Assembly: GCA_018668255.1 (NCBI GenBank)
Contig: JABISZ010000073.1
Coordinates: 35,185 to 99,184, forward strand
Direction of reading: 5' to 3'
Source of the DNA: Pseudomonadota bacterium
GTDB taxonomy: Bacteria > Pseudomonadota > Gammaproteobacteria > Ga0077536
Length of the DNA stretch: 64,000 bases
Positions 23,476-44,162 of this stretch are shown piece after piece; the first letter of the stretch is position 1, and the number at the start of each line of letters is the position of its first letter. The notes below the pieces were generated by a model, which made no database searches, was not told where the DNA came from, and saw nothing but the letters and a program-made list of their open reading frames with translations. Position numbers and translations under genes: made by a program.

Positions 23476-23504
23476 TAAAGATTTTATCTTGCGAGCTCTA
23501 ATAA

Positions 23505-24296: not shown

Positions 24297-24335
24297 ATTA
24301 CCTTAATCGCACGTGCGGGCACCATATTTTTCTTT

Positions 24336-24953: not shown

Positions 24954-24977
24954 ATGACATCCTGATTAGAATATTTA

Positions 24978-26093: not shown

Positions 26094-26144
26094 AGGGGCC
26101 TATACCTCCGGGTGTCGCGGCAGCATCTAGAACGTTAGCTTTTG

Positions 26145-27281: not shown

Positions 27282-27436
27282 GCGATTTTCCTATTTTAAG
27301 GACAGATTGTATATGATTATTATATATTTACGACGTCTTTTATACCTATTACTAACAGTACCGCAATAGAGGGTAAAAGTACAGCTTTGTTGTCGTATAA
27401 AAGTGTTAAAATTCTTTCAAAGAAAACAACGCCAGC

Positions 27437-27465
27437 TTGCAACCAAGCGTGCTGCTCTCCATAAT
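27437..27465 (+). promoter_or_regulatory. Putative sigma70 promoter for dxs (TTGCAA-17-CATAAT)
   Basis: The -35 TTGCAA at 27437-27442 and the -10 CATAAT at 27460-27465 are 17 bp apart, about 45 bp upstream of the dxs ATG. This is a motif match only. Confidence 0.3.
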
Positions 27466-27511
27466 TCACACCCTAAGGTAATTGCTGGCAAATTGTGAGA
27501 AAAATAATAAT

Positions 27512-29368: not shown

Positions 29369-29382
29369 AATTACTGAGGAGA

Positions 29383-30456
29383 CTATCTTAGAGTTTTAGT
29401 TAAAGCTTCCAAGAGTCTGTTCATATCATTCTCAGAGATTGCACCCATCAGAGATAATCTGAAAACCTTAGTTGAAAAGTGTCCTTGGCCTGCGTAGATA
29501 ATGAATCCAAGCGACTTGAGTTCATCGTGTAAATGCTGATACACCTTACCTAATGGCAGTTGGAACGTGTTGAGAACGCAGGAAGATTCAGATAGCTCTA
29601 TTAGTGGTTTTATCCCGAAAGAGAGCAACTTTTTCTGCACTTTTGACATTCTGCTAGAAAACAACTGATGTCGAGCTTGCCAGCCCCCTTCCTCTAAAAA
29701 CTCGTTCATCGCCTCATCAAAGGCGTAAAAGCATTGCACTGATTGTGTGAAAGGCGTTTCACCTAGATCTTGCTTAACAAGGTACTGGGCTAGGTCCAGG
29801 TAAACTGATTTTGCGGGGTGGGTTGTTTGAAAAAGTACTCGTCGGGCAACAACGAAAGCTGTTCCTGGTACACCATGTAGGCACTTGTTCGCTGTCGCGG
29901 CACAGGCATCAAGCTCCCACTTTTCGAAGTCTATACTTTCCCCCCCAAAACTACTTACACCATCCATTAACACGCGTGCCCCATGCTTCCGGCACACCTC
30001 AGAAATAGCTGCAATATCATTTAGGCGTCCAGTGGTAGTTTCGTGATGGACTATCGCTACATGTGAGTATCGAGATCCATCAAGCGCTTTATCTAGCTTT
30101 TTCAGTGAGATTACTTGATCCCATCCTGTACTGAGCTTTTCATGATCTATATTATGCGCAATCGCAATTTTGGTCATACGTTCACCATAAACGCCATTTT
30201 CTACGATCAGGATCTTTCCACTCGGAGGAACGCAACTTACAAGCATGGCTTCTACGGCCGCGGTCCCTGACCCAGTCAATAAAATACTTGCCCAAGTTTT
30301 GTTATCGAGCGCATATGCCGCAAGAATTTTTTGCCTAATTTTTCTCTGCAGGTTAGAGAATTCGATTTCCCTGTGACAAAGATCTTGGCCTTGCAGAGCG
30401 TCTCGCACTCGTTGGCTAAGTGTTACTGGTCCAGGATTTAAAAGAATCTGTTTCAC
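29383..30456 (-). CDS. phnW: 2-aminoethylphosphonate:pyruvate aminotransferase (PhnW/AepZ, class V)
   Basis: 357 aa. NPGPV, HREIEF, HHETTTG, SSFGG and ANKC..GVPG all match PhnW. Confidence 0.75.
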   Translation of the reverse strand: MKQILLNPGPVTLSQRVRDALQGQDLCHREIEFSNLQRKIRQKILAAYALDNKTWASILLTGSGTAAVEAMLVSCVPPSGKILIVENGVYGERMTKIAIAHNIDHEKLSTGWDQVISLKKLDKALDGSRYSHVAIVHHETTTGRLNDIAAISEVCRKHGARVLMDGVSSFGGESIDFEKWELDACAATANKCLHGVPGTAFVVARRVLFQTTHPAKSVYLDLAQYLVKQDLGETPFTQSVQCFYAFDEAMNEFLEEGGWQARHQLFSSRMSKVQKKLLSFGIKPLIELSESSCVLNTFQLPLGKVYQHLHDELKSLGFIIYAGQGHFSTKVFRLSLMGAISENDMNRLLEALTKTLR

Positions 30457-30492
30457 TATGTCTCTTATCCTTATAAGTGGTGAGTTATTGTT

Positions 30493-31632
30493 CTATCCAA
30501 TATGGCTTTTGAGACGGACTAAAACATCTGATGGAGCTATTGTAGGCCGAGGTAGACCTTTTGGCACTCCAGTTTGGATTTTCATATGCATGAACCGAGC
30601 GCCTCTATGGCTAGGCTCAGTTAGGAAGTCATGCAAAACTTCTAATTTATTGCTGCGCCAGACATTAGAGTAACCGCAGGCAACAGCTATTCCATCAAAC
30701 TGGGTGTCTTTAGAAACAGTCGCTTGACCACCAGTAGAGTCATGCGCTTCGTTGTCTAGTAACAAATGAGAAAAGTTAGGTGGATTACATGCCCCTATGG
30801 TTGCAAGATTGCCTAGTCGCATTAGTGCGGCCCCATCGCCGTCTATGACTAGTACTTTTAAATCAGGCCGACTAAGCGCTAATCCTAGACCGAGTGACGA
30901 AGCGCACCCCATGGATCCAACCATATAGAAATAATTCGGGAGATCGGCGATAGAGTAAAGCTCGCGACCGGTATATCCGGTAGTGGCTATGACGACGGTA
31001 TTAGTTTGTTGAGTCGTCTTTACTATCGATTGCAGAACTTGGTTTCTCGTTAGTGTAGTAACGTCAATATTTTCATCACCGTGATAAAAAGTATTTTGTT
31101 TCTTGTTTGGGAGTTGATTGGATAGATTAAAGTTCGCCACCGATCCTTTTTGCATAATCAAAGAGTAGGATTCATGTTTTTCTTCTATGCTTTGCGAGAT
31201 GTTGGCTAGGGTTGAATTAATTTCCTTAGTTGCTCGTGGGAAACTCTCATAGCTTATGCCAATACAATCGAATAACTCTTTTGTAATATTGCCCATCAGT
31301 TCATGTTGTGGTTCGTCCTGTAGTCCAGGTTCACCTCGATGAGTACAGATTACCAAGACGGGGATCTTAAAAGTATGTATGAGAGAAGTGAGCGGGCTAA
31401 TAGCATTACCGAGCCCTGAGTTTTGCATTAAGGCAACACTTTTTTTCCCACCTATAGAAGCACCTGCTGCTATAGCTATTGCATCGCCTTCATTCGCGGC
31501 TGAAACATAATTGAGCGAACTTGCGCTGATTACGTAGTTTATTAGTGGGGTTAAAAAAGAGCATGGTACTCCTGCGTACCAATCATACCCTTGATTTTTT
31601 AGCGGCAATATAAACTCTTCTGCTCGTATCAC
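30493..31632 (-). CDS. ppd: Phosphonopyruvate decarboxylase (TPP-dependent)
   Basis: 379 aa with a TPP-binding GDGAALM..N motif. Its length and the N-terminus MIRAEEFI..YDWYAGVPCS are typical of AepY/Ppd. It lies directly downstream of the PEP mutase. Confidence 0.75.
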   Translation of the reverse strand: MIRAEEFILPLKNQGYDWYAGVPCSFLTPLINYVISASSLNYVSAANEGDAIAIAAGASIGGKKSVALMQNSGLGNAISPLTSLIHTFKIPVLVICTHRGEPGLQDEPQHELMGNITKELFDCIGISYESFPRATKEINSTLANISQSIEEKHESYSLIMQKGSVANFNLSNQLPNKKQNTFYHGDENIDVTTLTRNQVLQSIVKTTQQTNTVVIATTGYTGRELYSIADLPNYFYMVGSMGCASSLGLGLALSRPDLKVLVIDGDGAALMRLGNLATIGACNPPNFSHLLLDNEAHDSTGGQATVSKDTQFDGIAVACGYSNVWRSNKLEVLHDFLTEPSHRGARFMHMKIQTGVPKGLPRPTIAPSDVLVRLKSHIG

Positions 31633-31643
31633 GTATTAGCGCC

Positions 31644-33290
31644 TTATTTTGCGTGGTTTGCGGCAAATTCGCTAGCACGCTCGAGGTCATGCAAGGAATT
31701 CACATTTATCCAGTGGCCATGAATGTATATCACACGAATAGGACGACCATTTAATACAAGCTTGTTTAACAAATCTTTCATATCAAACGAAGGAAATTTT
31801 TTGCTTTCGGACAGCTGATCTAAAGCTTCTTCTATCCATTTTCTGCCTTCTCCATGGACTCGCATCATGCCGATCCAGCGTCCATCGGAGCTCGAATTCT
31901 CTCTACAAGACTGCTCGCTGATCTGCTGGAGAAGAATGTCTTGGCCCCATAAAGACCGGTCATCTGGTCCGCTACAATAGGCATAATCTGGAGTCTCATT
32001 TGTAGATGATTCCAGCATTTGGGAATCTACAATGATAGTTATTTCACGATCAGACTCTAAAAGGCTTCTGAGCACATACCCTCGGAATAAGACATCGCCA
32101 TACATAAGCACCATATCATCGGAGAAACTCTTTTTTGCGCATAATAGAGATGTCAACTCTCCAGTTGTCGCGTGCAAATCATTGACAATCAGTTCTATTT
32201 TTTTAGAAGGGATAGTTTCATGTTTGTAGCCACCCACTACAGCAAGATTGTCTATCCCATGTTTCTTGAATTGATCTATAAGTCTGCCGAGTAAAGGCTT
32301 GCCGTTAACGGGCAACATTACTTTGGGTCGGTCTGCAGTCAGATTTTCCAAACCAGATCCTTGTGCGGCAGCGAGTAGGATGGCTTTTAAGTCTCTTTTT
32401 GTGCCTAAGAAATACTGTTTTTCTGCTGCTTGCAACTCCTCGGCCCCTTGCAAGCGAAAAATTTCTTTGACAGTCGCGATGTCGTCTTCTACCTCAACTA
32501 AATTTTCTTTCAACTGAATTTTTCTTGCAGTATCTTGCATTGCGGTTACTGAGCTTCTAATTAAATGGTTGGCCCAAATCACAAGGTTTATCTTCGCGTC
32601 TCGAAAGACTTTCGTGGGGGTGCTGTAGTACTTTGTAGGGACTATTACAAGCGGAGCTCTGCCGGCCCATTCGTGGGCAAATTCGATGATTTGATCCGCT
32701 TCGGAGTGAGCGCTATGAATTAATATTGCATCTGCTCCTGCCTTTCTATAGGCCTCTGCTCTTCGCAGTGCTTCTGCTGTATTCCAACCGGCAATATAGG
32801 CCTCGACGCGGGCTACAATACAAAAATCATCATCTGTTTGAGAGTCTTTTCCTGCGGCAATTTTCCCACAAAATTCATCTATATTTGCTAGCTCTTGTTT
32901 CTCTCCCGAAATAAAGCTATTTGTCTTAGGGAATAATTTATCTTCTATGCATACCCCAGATACTCCACGTTGTTCCAGCTTTCGAACCAGACGACGCATA
33001 TTGTTGAAATTTCCATACCCGGTATCGCCATCCAAAAGAATTGGGATATTGCAGGCGTCGACCATAAATTCGACCATATCGACCACCTGTGTCCAACTGG
33101 CTTCGTTGTTATCTCTAACGCCATATTGAGCCGATAAGGCAAGGCCACTAGCCCATATTCCACTAAAGCCTGCTTCTTCAGCGATTCGTGCGCTTATTCC
33201 ATTGTGCGCTTCTAAAATGAACTCGAGGTTGTCCGAGAGCAGGAGAGCTTTCAGCTTTGAGGTATTTGTTTTTTTTTGATTAAGTAACAT
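31644..33290 (-). CDS. ppm: Bifunctional phosphoenolpyruvate phosphomutase / phosphonate cytidylyltransferase (Ppm-PntC-type fusion)
   Basis: 548 aa. The N-terminal ~290 aa carry the PEP mutase signature ([33 protein letters not shown]). The C-terminal ~250 aa is a nucleotidyltransferase fold ([25 protein letters not shown]). Fusions of this kind are reported for phosphonate-activating cytidylyltransferases. Confidence 0.8.
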
Positions 33291-34023
33291 TTATTTTAGG
33301 CAATATTTCTTGTGAAGCTCGCTCAATATCCTCAGGGTAATCTATTTCTATCCAAGGGAGTCCGGTTATGTCCTCCACTCCTATATTATAGCCTGCATTG
33401 ATCGCAAGTTCTCGCAGCGCTTCTTCATGCGGTTGAGACTCCATACCAGCTTCAATAAATTCAGCGATAATTTCTTTCAGTCTTGCCGCAGTACTTGCGC
33501 AAAATTTGAAGAAACCGACTGACTCGCCTATTTGGTCATATATCAGGCTAGGGTCTATTTTTTTTCTGAATTCCACAATTCGCTCATTCTCTATGCATAT
33601 TTTTACGGGCTCATCTCCGTCTATGTAATGCCGGTCAATTAAGAAACAATCTTTAGAAGGGCTATGGATTAGCCGAGATAATATCTCAGGATGATATAAG
33701 ACATCAGCATCCATAACTAGAACATCACTGGTACCATCACACAAAACATCTCGCATACTCCAAAGGCTAACAATTGAACCCAAATCATATAAAGGGTTGT
33801 GCTCATGAGATATATCCGTCAACCCTTTTTGCTCAAGCCTTTTGAGTACGTTGAGTGCCTCATGTCCAAGGCAGAGATTGATGTCAGTTACTCCTAGTTT
33901 CCTAAGTGTGCGAATGTGTCTTTCAAGAAGAGAGGTACCGTCAAATTCTAAGAGGCACTTTGCAGTCACATGCGCAGAGCTAATACGATTCCCCACTCCT
34001 GCGGCCAGTATTATAGCCTTCAT
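33280..34023 (-). CDS. Nucleotidyltransferase (LicC/sugar-phosphate NTP-transferase family)
   Basis: 247 aa beginning [14 protein letters not shown], a G-x-G-x-R nucleotidyltransferase motif. It overlaps ppm by 11 bp and the upstream gene by 4 bp. Confidence 0.65.
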
Positions 34024-34808
34024 TGTGGCTTCTTAAGCAGGCGCGCCAGAGTTTTGCCAACGCCGAAATATGCGAATGCGTCTTTCAGCTGTCCGTAGAA
34101 ATATCCAAAGTTTGAAATACCCTTATCCGTAAGGTACTCAAGCGTCAATACGGTTCGCTTGTCTCGCGGTTTGGCCGGTGTAACTCGATGTCGAATGTTG
34201 TCTCCATTAAAAAAAACAAGAGAACCGGGTGAAATTTTCGTGCTACACATTATAGTTTCCTTACGATCATCTTTGCTAAACAGCTCGTATTCGAGCGCAC
34301 AGCAAGAGTCGTCTACGAGGCCTATCAGACAGGTATATCGAGAACCTCTATAATATGATTTGTCGTAATGAAATCCGATGTGGTCTCCTTCTCGGTCGTA
34401 GGAATACACGGCATAGGCATGAGGATCGCTCTCAGGGCAGTATAGGAGTGATTTACCGACTACAGAACTTAAGAAGCTCCTGAGTGAAGCTGAAGTGTAG
34501 ATAGAGCTGAATATTGGAGCGTTCAGGTCCAAATCAAATCTCGAGATGCTACCCCCTTTTTTGTGTTTAGGTATAAAACTTCTGTGAATATATGGTTCGA
34601 GTTGAGGTAGACTCTCTTGCATAGAGCACAGAAGAGAGTGGGGTAAAAAATCGTCTATTTGTATAAACTCGTCGTTTGTTCGAAATTCAGTCTGTGAGCT
34701 GTTGGCTTGTATGCTACTCAATCGATTTAAAGGGTCGATTTCAGCAGCTGATTTGTAACTAGCGATGGTCATGTGACGGTAAACAACCTTTTTTTCACTG
34801 ACGCTCAT
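34020..34808 (-). CDS. 2OG-Fe(II) oxygenase-like protein (putative hydroxylase)
   Basis: 262 aa. An HxD..H arrangement (GDHIGFHYD ... NGDNIRHRV) with a downstream R fits the double-stranded beta-helix fold. The family assignment is tentative. Confidence 0.4.
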   Translation of the reverse strand: MSVSEKKVVYRHMTIASYKSAAEIDPLNRLSSIQANSSQTEFRTNDEFIQIDDFLPHSLLCSMQESLPQLEPYIHRSFIPKHKKGGSISRFDLDLNAPIFSSIYTSASLRSFLSSVVGKSLLYCPESDPHAYAVYSYDREGDHIGFHYDKSYYRGSRYTCLIGLVDDSCCALEYELFSKDDRKETIMCSTKISPGSLVFFNGDNIRHRVTPAKPRDKRTVLTLEYLTDKGISNFGYFYGQLKDAFAYFGVGKTLARLLKKPQ

Positions 34809-34911
34809 CTTTGGAAAGGATTCCCCCAGACAAAGAGGGCCTGTTTTTCATAGTGTAATTTGCTGAGCGTCCGGTGATTATGCCATAGTCCGACAATGCG
34901 TAACCATAAAA

Positions 34912-35934
34912 TTGGCTAATAAAATGTCAAAAATCATCAAGTTTCTATTTTTATTATTCGGTATCGGGTTGCTGGTAGCGGTTACTTACCAGACTGACTT
35001 GACCCAATTAGCGAGGCACATTTCTGCTATTGGTCTTTTCGGGGTTGCTTTAATTCTTACCGTTTATATTCTGTACTTCGGAGCTGATGTCCTGAGTTGG
35101 CAAATCACTATGGTGAAGATTCCTGTGACATTTCTTTGGTTCGGTCGTCTTTACGTGGTGCGGATGATTGGCGAAGCTTATAACAACCTTACGCCGACAG
35201 CATCCTTAGGGGGGGAGCCCATTAAGGCGTGGTTGTTAAAATCGAATTGGGCGATCCCACTTAGAGATTCAGCATCCTCGTTGGTTATTGCAAAAACAGC
35301 AAGCATGTTCTCCTTATCCCTTTTCGGTAGTGTAGGTGTCCTCTTTCTTTTTCAGAGTTCTGCATTTGCGGGGGAGCAGAAAAGTATTGCGCTAGGCGGA
35401 TTGATTTTTATAGTGTTTTCTTCCGTGATCTTTTTTATGATGCAATATTTCCGCTTTTCATCCTATCTGGTGGGTAAAATTTCAAGCAATCGATTTGCTG
35501 GATTGTTAAAAAAAGCTTTTAGCACAATAGAAGATATAGACAAGAGGTTTGATGTCTTCTATCGGGAGCATAGTCTGCGTTTCGGATTCGCTTGCTTAGC
35601 GGCTATGGCTAATTGGTTAATCGGCGTTGTTGAGGTTTTTGTGATCTTGTATCTCATTGGTTATCCATTGTCTCTTGCGGAGGTGTTTATTATAGAAAGC
35701 CTTGTCCAACTGGTCCGTACAATCACATTTTTTGTTCCGGCAGGGCTGGGCACTCAAGAAGGGGCATTTTTTATTGTCGTCGGTGCCCTTACTGGGGTGT
35801 CTTCTGCAGGCTTGGCAGTGGCTCTCATCAGGCGATTTAGAGAGTTAATTTGGTTGGCAGTAAGTTTTTTGTTAGCGATATTTTACTCAGTAAGGCCCAG
35901 AACGATTTCAAAATTAGATTTTAAGGAGCTTTAG
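34912..35934 (+). CDS. UPF0104 flippase-like/LPG-synthase-TM family membrane protein, HpnL-like
   Basis: 340 aa with about 8 predicted TM segments and charged loops typical of the lysyl-PG-synthase TM (flippase-like) family. It is embedded in the hpn/phosphonate block. Confidence 0.5.
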   Translation: MANKMSKIIKFLFLLFGIGLLVAVTYQTDLTQLARHISAIGLFGVALILTVYILYFGADVLSWQITMVKIPVTFLWFGRLYVVRMIGEAYNNLTPTASLGGEPIKAWLLKSNWAIPLRDSASSLVIAKTASMFSLSLFGSVGVLFLFQSSAFAGEQKSIALGGLIFIVFSSVIFFMMQYFRFSSYLVGKISSNRFAGLLKKAFSTIEDIDKRFDVFYREHSLRFGFACLAAMANWLIGVVEVFVILYLIGYPLSLAEVFIIESLVQLVRTITFFVPAGLGTQEGAFFIVVGALTGVSSAGLAVALIRRFRELIWLAVSFLLAIFYSVRPRTISKLDFKEL

Positions 35935-35943
35935 TTCTTTCAT

Positions 35944-36936
35944 TCAACCTATCATTTTCATTTTACGGAACCACTCCAATGAGTCATGAATGGCTATTTT
36001 TGCGGGGCGCGCACTATAGCCAAGTTCTTTAGAGGCTCGTGCCGATGAAAAGAACATTTTATGTGCAGCCATCCTTAACCCATCAACTGTGGCTTGCGGT
36101 TCCGCCCCATTAATTAGGCCTGCCCACACTTCAGAGGCAAATGCAATTGGGTAGACAATCGCTCTGGGAATTCTTATGCGAGGTGGAGGATGGTTACAGT
36201 AAGCGGCAACAATGTCGAGGATCTCTTTTAGAGTTTGGTTCTCGCCGCCAAGAATATATCTTCGTCCAACTTGACCTTTGTCATAAGCCAGCAAATGTCC
36301 TGTTGCTACATCGTCTACATGAGCGACATTCAGTCCGGTATCAATGTATGCAGGCATGCGACGATTGGCGGCATCTCTTATGATTCTTCCTGTAGGGGTC
36401 GGTTTAGGATCACGCGGTCCGATCGGTGTAGACGGGTTTACAATGACAGCGGGCAGATTTTCCTCCGCTACAAGACGATCGACAACTTTTTCAGCTAAAA
36501 ATTTTGAACGTTTGTAGTGACCAATCATGTCCTTAAGATTTGAAGGCGTATCTTCGCAAGATGAAGTTCCATCATTCATTAAGCCGATAGTAGCGACACT
36601 GCTGGTATAAATTATTTTACTAACCCCTGCTCGCATTGCGGCACGCATAATGTTTTCTGTTCCTGCTACGTTATTAGCATACAATTCATCAGGGTTTTTA
36701 ACCCATAATCTATAGTCGGCCGCAACGTGATAGAGAGTGTCACATCCTTTTAACGCACGTTCCAACGAGCCACCATCTTGGAGGTCTCCGTTAACAACTG
36801 GAACATCTAGATCAGAAATGGTTCGGGTATCACTCGATACCCGCTTGAGTATCTTTAAAGGGACCCCTTTACTCAGGAGCGCTCTCGCTACAGCATTTCC
36901 AAGGAAGCCGGTTGCACCTGTTACAAGAGTCGTCAT
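35944..36936 (-). CDS. hpnA: NAD-dependent epimerase/dehydratase, hopanoid-associated HpnA-like
   Basis: 330 aa with the Rossmann motif VTGATGFLGNAV and a YxxxK-type SDR core. It is coupled by a 4-bp overlap to the CDP-alcohol phosphatidyltransferase, in the same operon as hpnN and hpnG. Confidence 0.6.
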   Translation of the reverse strand: MTTLVTGATGFLGNAVARALLSKGVPLKILKRVSSDTRTISDLDVPVVNGDLQDGGSLERALKGCDTLYHVAADYRLWVKNPDELYANNVAGTENIMRAAMRAGVSKIIYTSSVATIGLMNDGTSSCEDTPSNLKDMIGHYKRSKFLAEKVVDRLVAEENLPAVIVNPSTPIGPRDPKPTPTGRIIRDAANRRMPAYIDTGLNVAHVDDVATGHLLAYDKGQVGRRYILGGENQTLKEILDIVAAYCNHPPPRIRIPRAIVYPIAFASEVWAGLINGAEPQATVDGLRMAAHKMFFSSARASKELGYSARPAKIAIHDSLEWFRKMKMIG

Positions 36937-37541
36937 TTTTCTTCAACCATGATTTTGCCGTACTGGAAAACGACAAATGCAGCAGCTAAAGGAGCGCCAA
37001 GGCTAGCTAGGTATAAAAAATAATTTAAACCCTCTAAGAGGGTGACAATTGGAATTAAATACAGAATATCTTCTGCCTCGAACCCCCCCCAAAAAGCCTG
37101 ATCAATTTTCGACTTTCCATGCTTTTCTTCTATTAAATAGCGTAAGTGGAAGATAAGTGCTACTGATACTCCTGAAATTACGCCGGCTTCTAAGGCGTAA
37201 TTAGTTTCTGGGGAGAGAGCAACACCAACGCCTATTCCCACAAACATTAATACGGTCACTAAGGCATCAGATGCTAGATCAAAAATATGTCCAAATCTAC
37301 TTTGTTTATCTGCAAGTCGAGCTAACTCTCCATCCATATGATCAATAAAGTTAGATGAGATGATGAGTACTGCAGCTGTATTGAGATAAGTTCCCTTGGC
37401 AAAGAGCCACGCGCCTGCAAGCCCTACAACTAGTCTTAGTAGAGTGAAGTGATTAGGATGGATTGTGTTGGAGTCTTTAAAAGGCGCTATCAGCCAAGCC
37501 GCAGCTTTCGCATCCCAAGGTTTATGTCGCAATTTCCGCAC
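36933..37541 (-). CDS. CDP-alcohol phosphatidyltransferase family protein
   Basis: 202 aa with about 5 TM segments and a DHMDGELARLADKQSRFGHIFDLASDAL motif, i.e. D-G-x2-A-R...G-x3-D-x3-D. It overlaps hpnN by 20 bp and hpnA by 4 bp. Confidence 0.8.
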   Translation of the reverse strand: MRKLRHKPWDAKAAAWLIAPFKDSNTIHPNHFTLLRLVVGLAGAWLFAKGTYLNTAAVLIISSNFIDHMDGELARLADKQSRFGHIFDLASDALVTVLMFVGIGVGVALSPETNYALEAGVISGVSVALIFHLRYLIEEKHGKSKIDQAFWGGFEAEDILYLIPIVTLLEGLNYFLYLASLGAPLAAAFVVFQYGKIMVEEK

Positions 37542-40155
37542 CCCTTTTTACATATCTGCGAAGTAGTAGTGGAAGACATCCCAGCGTACTAATTAAAGTT
37601 ACTGAAAGGCCTAAGCTGAGTAAAAGACCCATACTTCCTGTACCCGCATGAGGTGAAATAGCCAAGTTGCCAAAGCTAGCCATGGTAGTCAGTGTGCTTA
37701 GAAACACTCCTCGTGCGGTACTGGTTTGCATGAAATTTATAGATAGGCCGTCCTGGTTAATATGACGATGAATAATATGAAGCGTGCTATCAACGCCAAT
37801 GCCGACGATCAAGGGGAGAGCAATGATGTTGGCAAAATTAAACGGCAAGCCGACTAAAACCATGATGGAAGTTGTTGCTACACACGCTAAGAGCATAGGT
37901 ACGAGAGCGATTACTACATGGGAAGATTTTCTCAAAGACACCCACAGCACTCCAATGATAACGAGACAGGCGGTCGCAAATGCTTGAGCGAACGAACTAA
38001 GTACTGAACGACTCGCTTCCAGGCTGACAATAGGGGTGCCAGTAGCACTAGGGCCGGTAACTTTCCTCACCTCTGCTATAAAGTCAGAGATTTTATCATT
38101 CGAATCTAATGGTTCCTGCGGATTAATTTGCAGTCTGATACGCCCTTCTTCGGTTACCCATCGACTTTTAAGGACGGCGGGTAAATTCTCAAATGTAACT
38201 AAGTTTGGAGACAGGCCCTCATTTAGTTTTTTTATCAATGGAGAGAAGTGACGCATAGTCACTGCCTCCAAATCCTGTGCATATTTAAAGTTTTGGTCGC
38301 GATCGGCGGTACTCACTCGATTTAATATTTTTTGTAGTTGAACATTATAAAGGAGTGATGCTTTTGAAGGCTCGGAATGCTGTTTTATCGTTTCAATATT
38401 GCGAATTAAACTAGTTTTGAGGGCTCCAAGATCAAGGTTCGGTACGTCGATATCTTCGGCAAGTTGAAATTCTCCTCCTATCACTAGCCCTAACTCATCG
38501 ATGACAGTTAGTTTTGAGGCTTGCTTTTGCGGGATGAAAGACGACACCAAAGTAACGTCACCAACCTCTGAGACTTCAGATAGCCGTTTCTTTATTTGTA
38601 GGGCATTAGCCATATCGCTTGCAATAAATGAAATCTCGTCTAATGGACTCTCTTTGTCTAGAGATATTTCATATAAAGTTTTTACAGACTCAGCATCTTG
38701 GTTATTTAGATGGAGTGGGTTGATATCGAAAGAGATATCTTTTGAGATATATATGCCTACGGACACAAAAACAACTAGCAGAGTTATGAAGTATTTTGAC
38801 GATGTTTCGGTGGTCCCGTGATGAGAGAGCTCTTTTCTATCACCCGAAGGTCTTTTATTTTTTTGTGCCGGTAGTACTGACAGGCAGGCAGGAAGAACAG
38901 TGAAGCTCATGAGAAAGCTTACAAGCATACCCACGCCGGCTATCATTCCTAGCTCTCCTACTCCTTTGTAGTCAGTTGGGATGAATGCGAGAAAGCCTAC
39001 TGCACTAGTTAGCGCACATAATCCGAGCGGCACTACTCCATGGCGAGCCGCAGCAGTTATGGCCTCAAGCTTAGAGCGAAAGAGACTTTCTTCTTGGAAT
39101 CGCAAGCAGTAGTGAATGGTAAAGTCAGCGCCTAGGCCCACATATAAGATAGCAAAAGCTATCGAAATCATATTTAGTGTGCCTATAGCAACCGTCGCGA
39201 ATGCGGCTGTTAAGGCTAATCCTGCGAGCAAGGTGAAAAGAGTTGCTGCCAGCAAAGAAACGGATCTTAAGCCTACCAGAAGTACGACAATAATTAAGAT
39301 GAACGAGAGCGCTGCGGCTTGCTTTGCTCCTTCTATGACGCTTAGCAATTCCTCGTGGCCAAGTGCGGCAGGACCAGTGAGTCTTATGGTAATCTCCGGC
39401 CAAAGTTCTGAGTCGAAGATATTTATTACAGATCGCAGGTCAGATATGACCTTATCAGCAGGTAAAATCTGGTTGAAGTCCAACTGAGGTGTGAGAACGA
39501 TTATGCGCCTGTGCGTTTTCCCCGATGCGCGGTCGTCTTCTAAGAAACTCTGCCAAGACGTAGGGATGGAGTTTGTTCCTGAGCGTTCTAACTCTGTGGC
39601 CAGCGTCATTATGAAGCTTTCTGACTCAGGATCGTCCGTGTTTTTTGCCCGTTTATTTATCTCATTAGTGAGTGCGAGCAGCCCATTCAAACTCGGATCG
39701 GCAGCTAACCTTCCAAGCATTGCTTGAGCATTTGTGAGTTTTTTCGCTAATATTTCTACTTCTTGAAGAGAGAGATATAGAAGCTTGTTTTCTCGAAAAA
39801 AAACACTGTTTTGAGGGTAAAAAACTTGTTGTGGACTAAAACCTAACTCAGAGAGCTGAGATATGAAGAGTTCAGCGGCTTCATCAGTTAAGTCGGGAGT
39901 TGGCCCTTCAATCACTATCGCGATCGTGTCAGAGAAAAAAGGGAAAGCCTGCTTGAAGTCTGTTTGTGCGACTCTCCATGGTACCTCGGACGAGATCATA
40001 TCTTCGGTGTTGGTGTTGATTTTTGCATGCAATATGGTTACCCAGGTACATACACTAGCGGCTAGAAAAGCCATACATAGAACCCAATATTTGTGTTTTA
40101 CGCTGGACCGAGTAATGGCTGCCATGGCCTTTAAGGAGATGTTCTTTAGAGACAT
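37522..40155 (-). CDS. hpnN: RND/MMPL-family hopanoid transporter HpnN-like
   Basis: 877 aa with two six-TM bundles separated by large periplasmic domains. The size and architecture are typical of HpnN/MMPL exporters. It overlaps hpnG by 10 bp. Confidence 0.7.
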   Translation of the reverse strand: MSLKNISLKAMAAITRSSVKHKYWVLCMAFLAASVCTWVTILHAKINTNTEDMISSEVPWRVAQTDFKQAFPFFSDTIAIVIEGPTPDLTDEAAELFISQLSELGFSPQQVFYPQNSVFFRENKLLYLSLQEVEILAKKLTNAQAMLGRLAADPSLNGLLALTNEINKRAKNTDDPESESFIMTLATELERSGTNSIPTSWQSFLEDDRASGKTHRRIIVLTPQLDFNQILPADKVISDLRSVINIFDSELWPEITIRLTGPAALGHEELLSVIEGAKQAAALSFILIIVVLLVGLRSVSLLAATLFTLLAGLALTAAFATVAIGTLNMISIAFAILYVGLGADFTIHYCLRFQEESLFRSKLEAITAAARHGVVPLGLCALTSAVGFLAFIPTDYKGVGELGMIAGVGMLVSFLMSFTVLPACLSVLPAQKNKRPSGDRKELSHHGTTETSSKYFITLLVVFVSVGIYISKDISFDINPLHLNNQDAESVKTLYEISLDKESPLDEISFIASDMANALQIKKRLSEVSEVGDVTLVSSFIPQKQASKLTVIDELGLVIGGEFQLAEDIDVPNLDLGALKTSLIRNIETIKQHSEPSKASLLYNVQLQKILNRVSTADRDQNFKYAQDLEAVTMRHFSPLIKKLNEGLSPNLVTFENLPAVLKSRWVTEEGRIRLQINPQEPLDSNDKISDFIAEVRKVTGPSATGTPIVSLEASRSVLSSFAQAFATACLVIIGVLWVSLRKSSHVVIALVPMLLACVATTSIMVLVGLPFNFANIIALPLIVGIGVDSTLHIIHRHINQDGLSINFMQTSTARGVFLSTLTTMASFGNLAISPHAGTGSMGLLLSLGLSVTLISTLGCLPLLLRRYVKRGAEIAT

Positions 40156-40829
40156 CGTTGTAGTAGAGCAGCTGCTTTTTTGAGTTGGCGAAGCGCTGAA
40201 TAGTAATTCAAGCCTAGCCGCATTAGCGAAAACAGTTGCAATGGGTTCTGTGTCAGTTCTTTAATGAGTTGGAAAACATTAACCTCTCCATTGTTTTTAA
40301 ATGAGCTAGTCGCGGCCACGGGAAGGTCATAGTCTGAGCGGTCAACTATGCACCGAACAGCAATAAAGTTTATTTTCGCATCACATGCTACTTTTGCAAT
40401 CGCAGCGCTTTCCATATCTACACTTTCAGCGCGGAATTTTTCGCGCAGCTCTTGCTTTTCTATCGCTAAGGGCACTGGTTTTTCAGCGCTGTAGAGTAAC
40501 CCACCTACTTTGGGATCTAAAGATCTGAACGTTTCTACCAGTGACTTAAGATCATCGGAATCAAATTTAAAGGATTCACTTCGATCATTTATAACGGCAC
40601 TGGTTACTATAAGATCCCCCACGGTAAGTTGTGGGTCTAATGCTCCAGCCACTCCCCAACTGATGAGACAGTCGCATCCTTGTTCCAGAAGACTTTTCGC
40701 CGACAACCTCGCATTTGTTTGTCCGGCGGACCCAGTGGCAAAATGCCAGCTGTTTTGTTCTGAGTAGCCTGAATCGCTATTAAATGTTTTAGCCTCCGCA
40801 GGCATGGCGGTAATGACTCCAAAGCGCAC
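40146..40829 (-). CDS. hpnG: PNP/MTA-nucleosidase-family protein, hopanoid-associated HpnG-like (adenosylhopane nucleosidase)
   Basis: 227 aa with a GVITAMPAEA start and a GVAGALDP..VGDLIV core of the PNP_UDP_1 fold. It is the operon partner of hpnN and is preceded by the squalene-synthase-like gene. Confidence 0.6.
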   Translation of the reverse strand: MRFGVITAMPAEAKTFNSDSGYSEQNSWHFATGSAGQTNARLSAKSLLEQGCDCLISWGVAGALDPQLTVGDLIVTSAVINDRSESFKFDSDDLKSLVETFRSLDPKVGGLLYSAEKPVPLAIEKQELREKFRAESVDMESAAIAKVACDAKINFIAVRCIVDRSDYDLPVAATSSFKNNGEVNVFQLIKELTQNPLQLFSLMRLGLNYYSALRQLKKAAALLQRCL

Positions 40830-40831
40830 GA

Positions 40832-41914
40832 TTAATTCTGTTTCTTAGGTATGGTTAAATCAGAAATGCTGTCTAAAGGGGTCTTGATTTCTTTTTTCTT
40901 CAAGCCTAGAGCGCTTGTTTTAAACAGTAATTTGAGCGCAGTATTGGACATGGCGAAAAAACTAGTGGCGAGAGCAGTTATCTTCACACTCCTGCGTGAT
41001 ATTTTCACTTGAGAACCATGGGTGAAATTGGGGTTTTTCCAGATTTTTTTTATGGTCAATAATGACATTCCAAGCGCCCATAGGCAGAATCGCCTTATCC
41101 CTGTCTGGTTTCGGGGGAGCAGCAGAGTAAAGCTGAGGGCATTACTCAAATGCCCGGATGCAGTCGCAAGCATTTCAAGCATAAAGCTGCGGAAAGGCTC
41201 GCCACCATTTTCTGGGGCGAGTGTCTTGAACAACACTCCGTGTTTTTGTAACGTTGTGCCAGGGAGCCAACATGCGCCCCGTTCTCGATCGGTCCAAACG
41301 TCTTTTAGGATGTTGGTCATTTGTAGCGCCTGGCCAAATGAGACAGAGAGTTGAAGGAGTAGCTCTTTTTTTGGCTCTAGCTCGGGGCAGTAGTCACAAA
41401 ACAACTCAGCGAGCATTTCTCCAACGACGCCAGCAACATAATAGCAATACCGATCCATTTCATTCTGATCTGCTAAGCCGTCTAGTGTTTCTTTTTCTTG
41501 ATAATACATCATACCCTTGGTCATTGTCAGAACGCATCTGGTTATGGCCAATTTTTGTGTGGTACGTAAATCGCGTGTTATTCGCAGTACTCTTCCCGAG
41601 GACTCTATAAGTTCTTTTTCTGCGATAGGGGTGTCTGCCGCTAGACAAGCCGAGAGATCGTTTTCAAAAGGTATATGATCCTCGGCTCCCTGGAGGAGAG
41701 ATACGAACCAATCTGAAAATCTTACTTTTTGATCTTTAGACATTTCTGGATCATCTTCTATTGTGTCTGCGATCCGACATAATAAGTAAGCATTCCCAAC
41801 AGCTCGCCTAAGTACACCAGGCAGTTGAGGGATCGTTAATGCAAAGGTGCGAGACACACCAATGAGGATGTCCGCCTGGAACTGTTCATCTTCTATAGTA
41901 GGTGCTGTATCCAT
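40832..41914 (-). CDS. Squalene/phytoene synthase family enzyme (squalene synthase-like; HpnC/HpnD/Sqs family)
   Basis: 360 aa with both Asp-rich motifs (YLLCRIADTIEDD; YCYYVAGVVGEM..; NILKDVWTDRERGACWLP). There are no carotenoid genes nearby. It heads the hpnG-hpnN operon. Confidence 0.7.
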   Translation of the reverse strand: MDTAPTIEDEQFQADILIGVSRTFALTIPQLPGVLRRAVGNAYLLCRIADTIEDDPEMSKDQKVRFSDWFVSLLQGAEDHIPFENDLSACLAADTPIAEKELIESSGRVLRITRDLRTTQKLAITRCVLTMTKGMMYYQEKETLDGLADQNEMDRYCYYVAGVVGEMLAELFCDYCPELEPKKELLLQLSVSFGQALQMTNILKDVWTDRERGACWLPGTTLQKHGVLFKTLAPENGGEPFRSFMLEMLATASGHLSNALSFTLLLPRNQTGIRRFCLWALGMSLLTIKKIWKNPNFTHGSQVKISRRSVKITALATSFFAMSNTALKLLFKTSALGLKKKEIKTPLDSISDLTIPKKQN

Positions 41915-42218
41915 TTTCTATTACTTTTTTCAGTTGTTTCATCAGGTTTTAGTTTGGCTGCTGTCGCGCGTAGCGTTAGTTAAAAGTTTACTGCGCCGCT
42001 AATCGTTTTCGACGTATAATAGACTGCAACTGCATATTGATACGATTGGGCACATTTCAAGGTAATAATATCATGAGACTGAAACTCAGACGTGGTGCTT
42101 ATAGATTTATATGCTGCAGTGCAATATAATCGCTAATACCTAATGCTTTTCTTTTTTAGCAAAACATTACCTTCGGTATTCCTTTTCCACCCACAGAATT
42201 TAATTACGTTGTAATCAT

Positions 42219-44162
42219 ATGCCTTTATTTGATGAAGTTGTCCCCGTGCTCCGAGAAGCGTTAATTCGAAGAGAATACACCCACTTGACCCCCGTGCAGA
42301 ACTCTGTACTGGAGCCAGAACTAAAAGACAGAGATCTTTTGGTGTCGGCACAAACGGGGTCAGGTAAGACCGTTGCTTTTGGACTTGCAATGGCCTCTAC
42401 TTTGTTAGGAGAGAAAGAAAAATTTAGCTCCAGCCCTTCACCGGTCGCTTTAGTTATAGCTCCTACCCGAGAACTCGCCTTGCAGGTAAAGGCCGAATTA
42501 ATGTGGCTTTACAAAGGGACAGATGCGGCCATCTCTTCCTGCGTGGGCGGAATGGATATGCGGACTGAAAGGATGGCGTTATCTAGAAGCATCCACATCG
42601 TTGTTGGCACCCCCGGAAGACTTAAAGATCACCTTGAACGGGGATCTCTTAAATTACAAAATATCAAAACCGTCGTTCTAGATGAAGCCGACGAGATGTT
42701 GGACATGGGCTTTCGTGATGATTTGGAGTTTATACTGCAAACAATGCCTAAAAGCCGCCGTACTCTTATGTTTTCAGCTACTGTACCAAAACCTATTGTC
42801 ACTTTAGCCAAGAATTATCAGAACAAAGCTGTTCGGGTAAGTACTAAAGAGGAAGACAAACAACACGTTGATATTGACTACAAAGCCTACAATGTATCCG
42901 CAAAAAACCGTGAAGATGCTATTGCCAATGTTTTACGTTACTACGATGCGAAAAATGCGTTGATTTTTTGTGGGACGAGACGTGCAGTAAATGAGATGAC
43001 TAGTAAATTCGGCAATAAGGGCTTCTCTGTTGTCGCATTGTCGGGTGAGCTGAGTCAAAAAGAACGGACTTATGCGCTTAATTCGCTACGCAGCGGTAGT
43101 GCGAAGGTTTGTGTTGCGACTGATGTGGCGGCACGTGGTTTGGATCTGCCGAACTTAGAGTTAGTCATTCATGCTGATATTCCCAAAAACAGTCAAAATC
43201 TATTACATCGCAGCGGAAGGACAGGTCGAGCTGGTAGAAAAGGGACAACCGTACTTATGGTCCCGGGCAATGCTCGCCGTAGAACTGAAATTCTTTTTAA
43301 ACATGCAAATGTCAACGCAACGTGGGGTGCGCCTCCATCTGTGTCGGAGATTTTAAAGCGTGACGACCAAAAGATAGTGGAAGCACCTGAATTTCTAGAA
43401 CCTCTTGCGGAGAATGAGATTGAGCTAGTTAAACAGCTCATTGACTGTCATGGAGAAGAGAAAATCGCCGCTGCTTTTGTGCGCCTGTTTCGTGGTGGTC
43501 GACTGGCATCTATGGCGTTAAAAGATGTTCCAAGCGCAGACTCATCCAACGATAGGGAAAAAAGATCTGGATCGAATCATGCTTTTACACAAGGCGTTTG
43601 GTTTGCACTTTCTGCCGGTCGGAAAGACCACATTGAGGCACGTTGGTTGCTTCCTATGCTGTGTAAGGTAGGACGGCTCCAGCACGGAGACGTGGGGAAA
43701 ATTGTCATTAATGAAAAGGATACTCACGTTGAGTTCTCAAAAAAAGCTGCGGATCTTTTTTTAAAGGCCATCTCTCCCGAATTACTGCTCGAACAAGATA
43801 TCTCTGTCAAAAAATTACCTGATAGCTTCAAACCTCGTGATAATCGAGAAAGACGCTCTCGAGGGAATAGTTCTTCTGATAAGAAAGGATATAGCAGTAA
43901 AAGAAATCGAGGAGAGGTTTCCTCTGACATAAAGAAAAAACGCACTGCTAGTGATCATAAGGACCGAAAAAGAGCTAAGTTGGTGAGTGGCGAAGGGGAA
44001 AAGATTGTTAAATTATCTTCCTATCAGCCTTCCCAGAACAAAAAATTGGAGCACAAACAGTCTGAGCCTAGAGGGAAAGCAACGAAACCATTAAGAGGAC
44101 GGGCTGAGAGTAAGACAACTTCAACTTTTGAGAAACGTAAGCGAAGCGTCAAGAAAAAATGA
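42219..44162 (+). CDS. deaD: ATP-dependent DEAD-box RNA helicase with DbpA-type RNA-binding domain and basic tail (DeaD/CsdA-like)
   Basis: 647 aa with a Q-motif, AQTGSGKT, DEAD (VLDEADEMLDMGF), SAT and HRSGRTGRAGRKG. The C-terminal Lys/Arg-rich tail and the roughly 300-bp leader resemble deaD. Confidence 0.85.
   Translation: MPLFDEVVPVLREALIRREYTHLTPVQNSVLEPELKDRDLLVSAQTGSGKTVAFGLAMASTLLGEKEKFSSSPSPVALVIAPTRELALQVKAELMWLYKGTDAAISSCVGGMDMRTERMALSRSIHIVVGTPGRLKDHLERGSLKLQNIKTVVLDEADEMLDMGFRDDLEFILQTMPKSRRTLMFSATVPKPIVTLAKNYQNKAVRVSTKEEDKQHVDIDYKAYNVSAKNREDAIANVLRYYDAKNALIFCGTRRAVNEMTSKFGNKGFSVVALSGELSQKERTYALNSLRSGSAKVCVATDVAARGLDLPNLELVIHADIPKNSQNLLHRSGRTGRAGRKGTTVLMVPGNARRRTEILFKHANVNATWGAPPSVSEILKRDDQKIVEAPEFLEPLAENEIELVKQLIDCHGEEKIAAAFVRLFRGGRLASMALKDVPSADSSNDREKRSGSNHAFTQGVWFALSAGRKDHIEARWLLPMLCKVGRLQHGDVGKIVINEKDTHVEFSKKAADLFLKAISPELLLEQDISVKKLPDSFKPRDNRERRSRGNSSSDKKGYSSKRNRGEVSSDIKKKRTASDHKDRKRAKLVSGEGEKIVKLSSYQPSQNKKLEHKQSEPRGKATKPLRGRAESKTTSTFEKRKRSVKKK

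Follow-up and report, generated by a model that had tools for sequence, protein, structure and literature searches.

A CDP-alcohol phosphotransferase gene between hpnN and hpnA

The stretch of DNA considered here (64,000 nucleotides, positions 35,185 to 99,184 of contig JABISZ010000073.1 in assembly GCA_018668255.1; hereafter the window) comes from a gammaproteobacterium of the GTDB lineage Ga0077536. It contains a gene for a CDP-alcohol phosphotransferase (hereafter the transferase), whose family, fold, intact catalytic motif, operon position, and synteny with two gene sets are set out below. One of these sets consists of hopanoid (hpn) genes, and the other is a cassette of 2-aminoethylphosphonate (AEP) genes. 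With positions counted from the first letter of the window, the operon that holds the transferase gene contains the following features, beginning with its first gene:

40832..41914, reverse strand: squalene/phytoene-synthase-family gene (PF00494; TIGR01559 105 bits, below cutoff)
40146..40829, reverse strand: hpnG-like nucleosidase/phosphorylase gene (PF01048; TIGR03468 157.5 bits, below the cutoff of 187.1)
37522..40155, reverse strand: hpnN, RND/MMPL hopanoid transporter (TIGR03480 799.8 bits, cutoff 751.85), whose stop overlaps the transferase start
36933..37541, reverse strand: transferase gene (202 amino acids (aa) from GTG 37541; likelier 199 aa from TTG 37532)
37266..37343, reverse strand: catalytic signature of the transferase, D67-x2-D70-G71-x2-A74-R75-x8-G84-x3-D88-x3-D92, complete in the translation
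35944..36936, reverse strand: hpnA, hopanoid-associated short-chain dehydrogenase/reductase (TIGR03466 468.8 bits, cutoff 367.65)

The transferase gene shares one operon with bona fide hpnN and hpnA genes, both of which score above their NCBIfam cutoffs and have stop or start codons that overlap with it. A preliminary description of the window had proposed this membership, which is kept in about 28 related loci. The single SQS_PSY-family protein of the operon (SQS) scores below the squalene synthase, HpnC, and HpnD cutoffs. From the SQS-like gene through the hpnG-like gene, hpnN, the transferase gene, and hpnA, the spacings are +2, -10, -20 (with the GTG start), and -4 nucleotides (nt). The last of these is an ATGA overlap between the transferase stop and the hpnA start, just as first described. 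The overlap with hpnN is also real, but its length was probably overstated at 20 nt: GenBank proteins from metagenome-assembled genomes (MAGs) that are 99% identical to the transferase are annotated from TTG 37532 (199 aa), and an AAGGGG Shine-Dalgarno-like element lies 8 nt upstream of that codon. TTG 37532 is therefore more likely to be the start than GTG 37541, which makes the overlap 11 nt. Among related loci, 17 have a 4-nt overlap between the upstream stop codon and the start of the transferase gene, and a few others have one of 11 nt, so the tight coupling of the transferase start is conserved.

The GC content of the transferase gene is 0.42, next to 0.42-0.46 for its neighbours and 0.438 for the window, and this uniform composition gives no sign of a recent insertion. 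A recent horizontal insertion of the gene was considered and set aside for want of any compositional signal. In a rough neighbour-joining (NJ) tree, operon-type and cassette-type transferases fall into separate, old groups, with short internal branches. The gene had been described as inserted in the hpnN-hpnA operon; the position stands, and "inserted" should rather be understood as a relocation of the gene, in this lineage, from the cassette to the hpn operon.

Family, motif, and fold of the transferase

The transferase matches the Pfam family PF01066 (CDP-OH_P_transf) with 60.4 bits against a gathering cutoff of 22. It satisfies the superfamily signature D(x2)DG(x2)AR(x7-8)G(x3)D(x3)D in helices 2-3, so that the assignment to this family with an intact motif, made earlier from the translation, is borne out in full. 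In an alignment of 32 relatives, every motif residue other than D88 is invariant, and D88 is replaced in two of the 32 rows, by E in one and by F in the other. The motif is conserved again in a second alignment of 15 relatives from the Gammaproteobacteria, Betaproteobacteria, and Cyanobacteria. Two blocks are specific to the transferase family and invariant across phyla, namely an N-terminal KPWDA and an acidic loop GF(E/D)xED(I/V)LYLxP.

An AlphaFold2 model built from the 32 relatives has a mean predicted local distance difference test score of 89.8 and a predicted TM-score of 0.86, and consists of an N-terminal helix followed by six long helices. A Foldseek search of this model against the PDB placed AF2299 first (TM-score (TM) 0.76, probability 1.00), followed by IPCT-DIPPS and the phosphatidylinositol phosphate (PIP) synthases, with PgsA and PssA far lower. 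The family profile run against all PDB sequences gave a similar picture: E-values were 1.7e-8 for DIPPS, 4.7e-8 for AF2299, and 1.2e-5 for CEPT1, with phosphatidylinositol (PI) and PIP synthases also among the matches, while PgsA and PssA reached 0.31 and 0.85. The top match in that search, the designer pentatricopeptide-repeat protein 6EEN, was discarded as a repeat artefact made of eight stretches of 3-4 bits each.

In the NCBIfam search of the transferase protein, no equivalog model scored at or above its cutoff, and the models that matched below it were as follows:

archaetidylinositol-phosphate synthase (archin_ph_syn): 52 bits, cutoff 180
PIP synthase (PIPSynth): 36.5 bits, cutoff 170
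pgsA: 36 bits, cutoff 109.1
ClsA: 34.7 bits, cutoff 240
pssA: 26.3 bits, cutoff 107

Neither these scores nor the PDB sequence and fold comparisons revealed the clear orthology to PgsA or Pcs housekeeping enzymes that the preliminary description had set against its own proposal. Gene fusions were also considered as a clue to the acceptor, and the only long relative, the metagenomic protein P0239 (407 aa), consists of two copies of the transferase itself fused in tandem, in keeping with the dimer as the working unit of the CDP-alcohol phosphotransferase family.

Phosphonate genes of the window

Beyond hpnA lie the remaining genes of the cassette:

34912..35934, forward strand: HpnL-like flippase-like membrane protein (PF03706 95 bits; TIGR03476 145 bits, below the cutoff of 195.65)
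34020..34808, reverse strand: HalD-like 2-oxoglutarate (2OG)/Fe(II) oxygenase, a predicted phosphonate hydroxylase (PF23169 43.8 bits; conserved cassette position)
33280..34023, reverse strand: stand-alone PntC-like (MobA-like) cytidylyltransferase (PF12804; best solved relative 6PD1/6PD2, E 7.4e-9 for 6PD1 over the full length)
31644..33290, reverse strand: phosphoenolpyruvate (PEP) mutase (Ppm) fused to a LicC/PntC-like nucleotidyltransferase (TIGR02320 390 bits, cutoff 319.55)
30493..31632, reverse strand: phosphonopyruvate decarboxylase (Ppd; TIGR03297 424 bits, cutoff 312.5)
29383..30456, reverse strand: AEP aminotransferase (AEPT; TIGR03301 390 bits, cutoff 360.8)

The translation of the PEP mutase carries the 10-residue Ppm motif, and its fused C-terminal domain matches LicC (1JYK) and PntC (6PD1). 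The latter structure is Tde1415, an AEP-specific cytidylyltransferase PntC that was crystallised with CMP-AEP (PMC6697681), where CMP is cytidine monophosphate. The Ppm fusion, Ppd, AEPT, and second PntC-like nucleotidyltransferase that had first been described here are confirmed by family models or solved relatives, and production of CMP-AEP beside the transferase may accordingly be regarded as a well-founded prediction from the gene content.

The full seven-gene core of the cassette lies within 29383..37541, but its genes do not form the single co-directional operon headed by the transferase that is known elsewhere, for hpnA and the inverted HpnL-like gene intervene. The HpnL-like gene converges on hpnA and diverges from the phosphonate operon, which is preceded by the divergent intergenic region of 103 nt. 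The window arrangement is an architectural variant of the cassette.

The cassette itself has been described before. Gene-cluster families named "Burkholderiales_CDP-OH" are reported to make up 318 of 882 ppm neighbourhoods (36%), more than any other kind (Li and Horsman 2022, PMC8942020), and are identified in that paper with what Yu et al. 2013 called Group 1 phosphonolipids. The core given there comprises a Ppm-PntC fusion, Ppd, AEPT, a 2OG oxygenase, a second PntC, a CDP-OH transferase, and an LPG-synthase-TM protein; a 1-hydroxy-AEP lipid is predicted as the product, with no phosphonolipid characterised from the group (PMC8942020). Similarly, a lichen Nostoc cluster has been drawn with a CDP-alcohol phosphatidyltransferase as the coupling step of a pathway to diacylglycerol (DAG) or alkyl-acylglycerol (AAG) lipids (Gagunashvili and Andresson, PMC5987646). 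The transferase family and its predicted role in phosphonate transfer are therefore already known from genome mining. What is new is the transferase embedded in an hpn operon as an architectural variant.

Conservation of the cassette around the transferase

We scanned one genome per GTDB species, which yielded 547 relatives of the transferase, and analysed the best 80 loci with the proteins of the window. Where at least 6 kb of downstream sequence was available, cassette genes adjoin the transferase orthologue in 66 of 68 species-level loci. This strongly supports the CMP-AEP-linked role as a phosphono-alcohol transferase that had been suggested for the window gene, in line with the published predictions (PMC8942020, PMC5987646). 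Transferase orthologues in cassette loci are 47-63% identical to the window protein, and the identity is 47-55% over the full length for the cassette transferases of Pandoraea, Cupriavidus, Paraburkholderia, Burkholderia, and Mycetohabitans.

Two architectures dominate. Uncultured, mostly marine Gammaproteobacteria have the window order, i.e., SQS, hpnG, (hpnN), transferase, and hpnA, then the inverted HpnL-like gene, followed by the oxygenase, PntC, Ppm-PntC, Ppd, and AEPT genes, dxs on the opposite strand, and hpnH. Betaproteobacteria and Steroidobacteraceae have one co-directional operon of transferase, oxygenase, HpnL, PntC, Ppm-PntC, Ppd, and AEPT genes, in which 4-nt overlaps are frequent and often include the transferase/oxygenase pair; genera with such a transferase-headed operon are Pandoraea, Paraburkholderia, Burkholderia, Cupriavidus, Trinickia, Pararobbsia, Mycetohabitans, Herbaspirillum, and Janthinobacterium. 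In addition, a large clade of Nostocales (Nostoc, Scytonema, Calothrix, and Chlorogloeopsis) has orthologues of about 50% identity beside PntC, Ppm-PntC, Ppd, and AEPT genes. In the three Nostocales clusters that include phosphonate genes (L087-L089), the place of the proteobacterial HpnL gene is taken by a divergently transcribed gene for an MsbA-like ABC exporter.

Twelve loci, mostly from Paraburkholderia, hold only the transferase, oxygenase, HpnL, and PntC genes, with no Ppm, Ppd, or AEPT gene within 6-10 kb (L019, L050, L056, L058, L063, L065, L067, L069, L074, L075, L077, and L080). The cassette can thus be divided into an installation module of four genes and a supply module of three. 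The neighbours of the four-gene locus L056 are a PhoX phosphatase, a major facilitator superfamily transporter, and an ABC importer, a hint that AEP is taken up from outside for use or that regulation is linked to phosphate.

The orthologous transferase of the "Burkholderiales_CDP-OH"/"Group 1 phosphonolipid" cassette (47-55% identity) shares the KPWDA and GF(E/D)xEDxLYLxP motifs with that of the window. Compared with that cassette, the window has its transferase outside the cassette, between hpnN and hpnA, and its flippase-like gene is inverted, divergent, and below the HpnL cutoff, with the cassette and the hpn genes interleaved.

Linkage to hopanoid genes across lineages

The association with hopanoid genes is not confined to the window lineage. 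Genes of the hpn set lie no more than 10 kb away in 38-42 of the 80 loci, and at least five arrangements are represented. The first is that of the window lineage, SQS-hpnG-hpnN-transferase-hpnA. In the second, on pBRH01 of the cultured Mycetohabitans rhizoxinica HKI 454, the cassette is followed by dxs, two hypothetical genes, and hpnN (NF052374, 1244 bits), and after hpnN by an MlaC/HpnM-like gene, ispH, hpnH, hpnA, hpnB (545 bits), hpnG, and shc; Pandoraea and Pararobbsia likewise have the cassette, then dxs, and then hpnN. In the third, found in Pandoraea eparura and a Herbaspirillum MAG, the cassette directly adjoins an equivalog-scoring hpnN (1236 and 1247 bits). The fourth, in the uncultured MAG SZAS-87, runs on one strand through hpnH, a farnesyl diphosphate synthase gene, SQS, shc (829 bits), hpnG, and hpnA (491 bits) into the cassette. 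The fifth occurs in the cyanobacterium Scytonema sp. HK-05, where hpnJ (753 bits), hpnK (280 bits), and two hpnI genes (358 and 370 bits) precede a B12 radical S-adenosylmethionine (SAM) gene, the transferase, a PhnY*-like hydroxylase, a second transferase paralogue, and the AEP genes. The cassette and hpn gene sets are physically interleaved in the window and in the Mycetohabitans, SZAS-87, and Scytonema loci.

The linkage extends to the cassette itself. The flippase-like gene of the cassette scores 352.5, 312.6, 352.3, and 329.8 bits against the HpnL model TIGR03476 (cutoff 195.65) in cassettes from Pandoraea, Cupriavidus, Steroidobacteraceae, and Mycetohabitans (L020 11435-12457; L037; L051; L090 21427-22428), and by this model, the cassettes of Betaproteobacteria and Steroidobacteraceae encode a bona fide HpnL. 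GenBank names such as "flippase-like domain-containing protein" mask this identity. The Group 1 cassette contains HpnL and recurs as a satellite of hopanoid clusters, a pattern that we did not find in the searchable literature.

The gene hpnL is enriched near shc (PMC12324291). Among Alphaproteobacteria, 35 of 48 hpnH-positive genomes carry it, in most cases as part of an hpn cluster, and every hpnH-negative genome lacks it (PMC12583986). In the hopanoid literature, hpnL, hpnA, and hpnB are counted among the conserved genes to which no function has been assigned (PMC12583986, PMC12324291). One phosphonate paper labels "hpnL" in its cluster figure with hopanoids left unmentioned (PMC5987646). 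Among the cassette and hpn-gene papers that we checked for the other field's terms, PMC6697681 standing outside this check, none joins both topics: the string "phosphon" is absent from PMC12324291 and PMC12583986, and "hopan" is absent from PMC8942020 and PMC5987646. Nor did the searchable literature yield a stated connection between HpnL and phosphonates.

In the window, further genes with hopanoid or isoprenoid assignments lie on the far side of the phosphonate operon:

27482..29368, forward strand: dxs, isoprenoid-precursor supply (TIGR00204 908 bits)
26145..27281, reverse strand: hpnH, adenosylhopane synthase (TIGR03470 553 bits, cutoff 225)
24978..26093, reverse strand: hpnB-like glycosyltransferase (TIGR03469 377.1 bits, just below the cutoff of 379.25)
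24336..24953, reverse strand: hpnM, MlaC-like periplasmic lipid carrier (TIGR03481 172.6 bits, cutoff 160.1)
23505..24296, reverse strand: MlaA-like lipoprotein, the "HpnS" of a 2025 preprint, PMC12324291 (NF011672 MlaA 126 bits, below cutoff)

The hpnM and MlaA-like genes adjoin (23505-24953) downstream of hpnH and the hpnB-like gene, and this pair matches the HpnM-HpnS periplasmic hopanoid shuttle that was proposed from structure prediction in the preprint (PMC12324291). A squalene-hopene cyclase was not noticed among the open reading frames (ORFs) inspected in the window, about half of the ORFs of at least 150 aa never having been run against the family library.

Predicted donor, acceptor, and product

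We consider it quite probable that the transferase is the installation enzyme of a conserved AEP cassette with CMP-AEP or its hydroxylated form, CMP-1-hydroxy-AEP (together CMP-(H)AEP), as donor. The donor is predicted in this way because the transferase alone in the cassette has the family chemistry that consumes a CMP-activated phosph(on)o-alcohol. In the route that we infer, from donor and acceptor through the order of hydroxylation to flipping and export, Ppm, Ppd, and the AEP transaminase would make AEP, a PntC-type cytidylyltransferase would convert it to CMP-AEP, and the 2OG oxygenase would hydroxylate C-1 either before or after activation, giving the 1-hydroxy-AEP (HAEP) form. At the transferase step, a lipid hydroxyl, e.g., a side-chain hydroxyl of bacteriohopanetetrol or a derivative, would attack the phosphonate phosphorus of CMP-(H)AEP, with CMP leaving. 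The product, a lipid-O-P(O2)-CH2CH2NH3+ phosphonate ester formed on the cytoplasmic face, would be moved across the inner membrane by the HpnL-type flippase-like protein and then handled by the HpnN, HpnM, and MlaA-like proteins encoded alongside.

The solved relatives of the transferase fit parts of this route. IPCT-DIPPS and AF2299 of Archaeoglobus fulgidus (PDB 4MND and 4O6M) are its closest solved folds (TM 0.69-0.77) and best structure-sequence matches, and DIPPS follows the same logic as PntC and the window transferase, using a soluble CDP-alcohol from a partnered cytidylyltransferase. However, the identity is only about 20%, the window transferase has no fused cytosolic domain, and the DIPPS acceptor is soluble inositol-1-phosphate, not a lipid. 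CEPT1 and CHPT1 (PDB 8GYW and 8ERO) carry out Kennedy-type transfer of a head group from a soluble CDP-alcohol to a lipid hydroxyl, as is proposed for the transferase. They are distant from it (E 1e-5; TM 0.63), being larger, ten-helix enzymes with DAG as acceptor. Eukaryotic relatives of CEPT1/CHPT1 make AEP lipids from CMP-AEP. The Pnt/Lic pathway (PntC Tde1415, LicC; PMC6697681) shares its cytidylyltransferase family and its activate-then-transfer logic with the window, but the characterised Lic/Pnt systems employ LicD-type transferases on glycans rather than a CDP-alcohol phosphotransferase. Lastly, HpnI, HpnJ, HpnK, and HpnO occupy the same genomic habitat, inside or beside hpn clusters, and would act on the same substrate class (the C35 side chain) if the acceptor is a hopanoid, but they are unrelated to the transferase in enzyme family and chemistry.

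The flippase-like partner, which is HpnL in proteobacteria and an MsbA-like ABC exporter in Nostocales, suggests that the transferase makes a membrane lipid and does so at the cytoplasmic face. As for the nature of that lipid, the recurrence of the transferase/hpn pairing in distant bacteria suggests a hopanoid. Four observations lead us to favour a hopanoid acceptor over DAG: the transferase sits between hpnN and hpnA, it is repeatedly juxtaposed to different hpn genes in three distant taxa, its partner is HpnL, and no phosphono-phosphatidylethanolamine has been reported in well-studied carrier genera. We take an extended (C35) hopanoid to be the likeliest single acceptor, and the whole reading that includes it is offered tentatively, as one that falls somewhat short of being probable. 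Put in terms of the product, the Group 1 cassette might make a zwitterionic (hydroxy)AEP ester of bacteriohopanepolyol, that is, a phosphono-hopanoid rather than a glycerophosphonolipid, a possibility that we raise equally tentatively. The transferase would then be the coupling enzyme, HpnL the flippase, and HpnN, HpnM, and the MlaA-like protein the export route. HpnA, which is adjacent in three architectures, might supply the acceptor hydroxyl, e.g., by reduction of ribosylhopane to bacteriohopanetetrol.

Several points weigh against a hopanoid acceptor. To our knowledge, all known phosphonolipids are glycero- or sphingolipids, and we know of no CDP-alcohol phosphotransferase with a triterpenoid acceptor. 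A hopanoid bearing phosphonate or phosphate was not found in the searchable literature. The window HpnL-like protein, at 145 bits, is a divergent relative below the TIGR03476 cutoff. Roughly half of the loci are without a nearby hpn gene, including most of those in Paraburkholderia and many in Steroidobacteraceae, and in B. cenocepacia, B. multivorans, and Cupriavidus sp. P-10, no hpn gene was found within 20 kb on either side. In Alphaproteobacteria, hpn clusters are reported to contain hpnL with no further candidate genes close by (PMC12583986), and HpnL therefore does not depend on a phosphonate partner. The clustering could also reflect co-regulation of two envelope-lipid pathways.

This last thought is at the heart of the principal alternative, which keeps the donor and replaces the acceptor. 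Here the (hydroxy)AEP-phosphonyl group would pass to DAG, AAG, or a ceramide-like lipid in a Kennedy-type reaction giving a phosphono analogue of phosphatidylethanolamine, and the hopanoid neighbourhood would mean envelope-lipid co-regulation only. We regard this as possible but rather doubtful. DAG is the default acceptor by precedent, it is the acceptor with soluble CDP-alcohols of CEPT1 and CHPT1, both detectable relatives of the transferase, and a classical acceptor matches the published prediction for the cassette (PMC8942020; the DAG/AAG pathway of PMC5987646). Many cassettes are not beside hpn genes, and HpnL is related to the flippase domain of MprF, which acts on a glycerophospholipid. 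What a classical acceptor leaves unexplained is the translational coupling of the transferase between hpnN and hpnA, the hpn linkage in three distant taxa with different hpn partners, and a cassette flippase drawn from a family otherwise tied to hpnH-positive genomes. Moreover, no such phosphonolipid has been found in the well-studied carrier genera (PMC8942020).

A non-lipid acceptor, i.e., a glycan, lipopolysaccharide core, or other envelope polymer modified in the manner of LicD-type phosphocholine/AEP decoration, is improbable. Glycans, along with lipids, are considered the destination of most bacterial AEP (PMC6697681), and an HpnB-like glycosyltransferase is encoded in the neighbourhood. 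However, glycans are normally decorated by LicD-type enzymes and not by six-helix CDP-alcohol phosphotransferases (PMC6697681), the cassette has no conserved association with polysaccharide genes, and the flippase-like partner points to a lipid product.

We also weighed a reversal of roles, in which CDP-DAG would be the donor and the hydroxyl of 1-hydroxy-AEP the acceptor, yielding phosphatidyl-hydroxy-AEP. The best NCBIfam and fold neighbours of the transferase include archaetidylinositol-phosphate (AIP) synthase, PIP synthase, and PgsA1, which use CDP-DAG or CDP-archaeol with phosphorylated alcohol acceptors, and the oxygenase gene is translationally coupled to the transferase gene in Betaproteobacteria. 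This scheme would leave two conserved PntC-type cytidylyltransferases with no consumer for CMP-AEP, and some cyanobacterial clusters (e.g., in Dulcicalothrix) keep the transferase and PntC with no adjacent oxygenase, so that we find it quite improbable. That the transferase might be a housekeeping phospholipid synthase (PgsA, PssA, Pcs, or PIP synthase) present here by chance, as JGI automatic names of its relatives ("phosphatidylglycerophosphate synthase" or "archaetidylinositol phosphate synthase") would have it, is very unlikely and effectively refuted by the NCBIfam cutoffs, every equivalog score falling far below them, by the PDB comparisons, in which PgsA and PssA have E-values of 0.3-0.9 in the profile search, and by a phosphonate-gene context conserved across phyla.

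If the proposal of a hopanoid acceptor is correct, the product would be a new class of membrane lipid and, in soils, lichens, and the ocean, a sink for reduced phosphorus that has so far been overlooked; hpnL and perhaps hpnA, unassigned since their naming, would gain functions. Should the acceptor be DAG, the long-missing phosphonolipid synthase would still have been identified, co-expressed with hopanoid export. The interleaving of the two gene sets brings two standing questions, the product of the cassette and the function of hpnL, together into one.

Transcription units and variation among the loci

A promoter and terminator scan of 23000..42400 gave fewer sites than shuffled sequence and was uninformative on transcription units. 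Convergent gene ends are close together in this region, with the stops of the HpnL-like gene and hpnA 9 nt apart (35934-35944) and those of dxs and the AEP transaminase gene 14 nt apart (29368-29383); no terminator-like hairpin is present between the stops of either pair.

A Chromatiales cave MAG (L027 2889-7302) has kept hpnN-transferase-hpnA, with no phosphonate genes in the adjoining 10 kb. Its hpnA is followed by genes for a PfkB kinase, a DUF255 protein, Lgt, ThyA, and DHFR, and its transferase is an outlier in the NJ tree. In locus L084 (912-2440), another CDP-OH transferase (204 aa, weakly pgsA-like) lies with an NAD-binding epimerase-like protein 9 kb upstream of the hpn operon; we set it aside as an unrelated paralogue that has no counterpart in the window.

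The cyanobacterial loci show additional features. In Nostocales, the transferase gene is preceded, immediately or in Nostoc at a distance of 5 kb, by a gene for a B12-binding radical-SAM protein of 546-551 aa with a DUF4070 domain (L059 8341-9996; L088 8352-9992; L089 8303-9949; L087 4898-6553). The hopanoid C-2 methylase HpnP and HpnP-like proteins both share the B12 radical-SAM/DUF4070 architecture in the literature. No HpnP model was among the NCBIfam matches of the cyanobacterial gene, and its database names are generic; it may encode either kind of protein. In the Scytonema cluster (L088 10782-12513), a PhnY*-like (PhyH) hydroxylase replaces the HalD-like oxygenase, and the second CDP-OH transferase paralogue there is divergent (30% identity).

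Other lipid-transport genes adjoin some proteobacterial cassettes. Cupriavidus basilensis and a related strain have an MlaC/HpnM-like gene directly after AEPT (L051 17140-17847; L033 17463-18155), with TIGR03481 scores of 84-88 bits, below cutoff, and 51-52% identity to the Mycetohabitans gene between hpnN and ispH. An MmpL3-like transporter gene and Omp85-family genes border some cassettes of the Steroidobacteraceae type (L086 6444-9902; L078 8560-9897; L086 17569-18951). The MmpL3-like MMPL transporter has 1152 aa and is not HpnN; it and the Omp85-family neighbours are candidates for other lipid-export partners.

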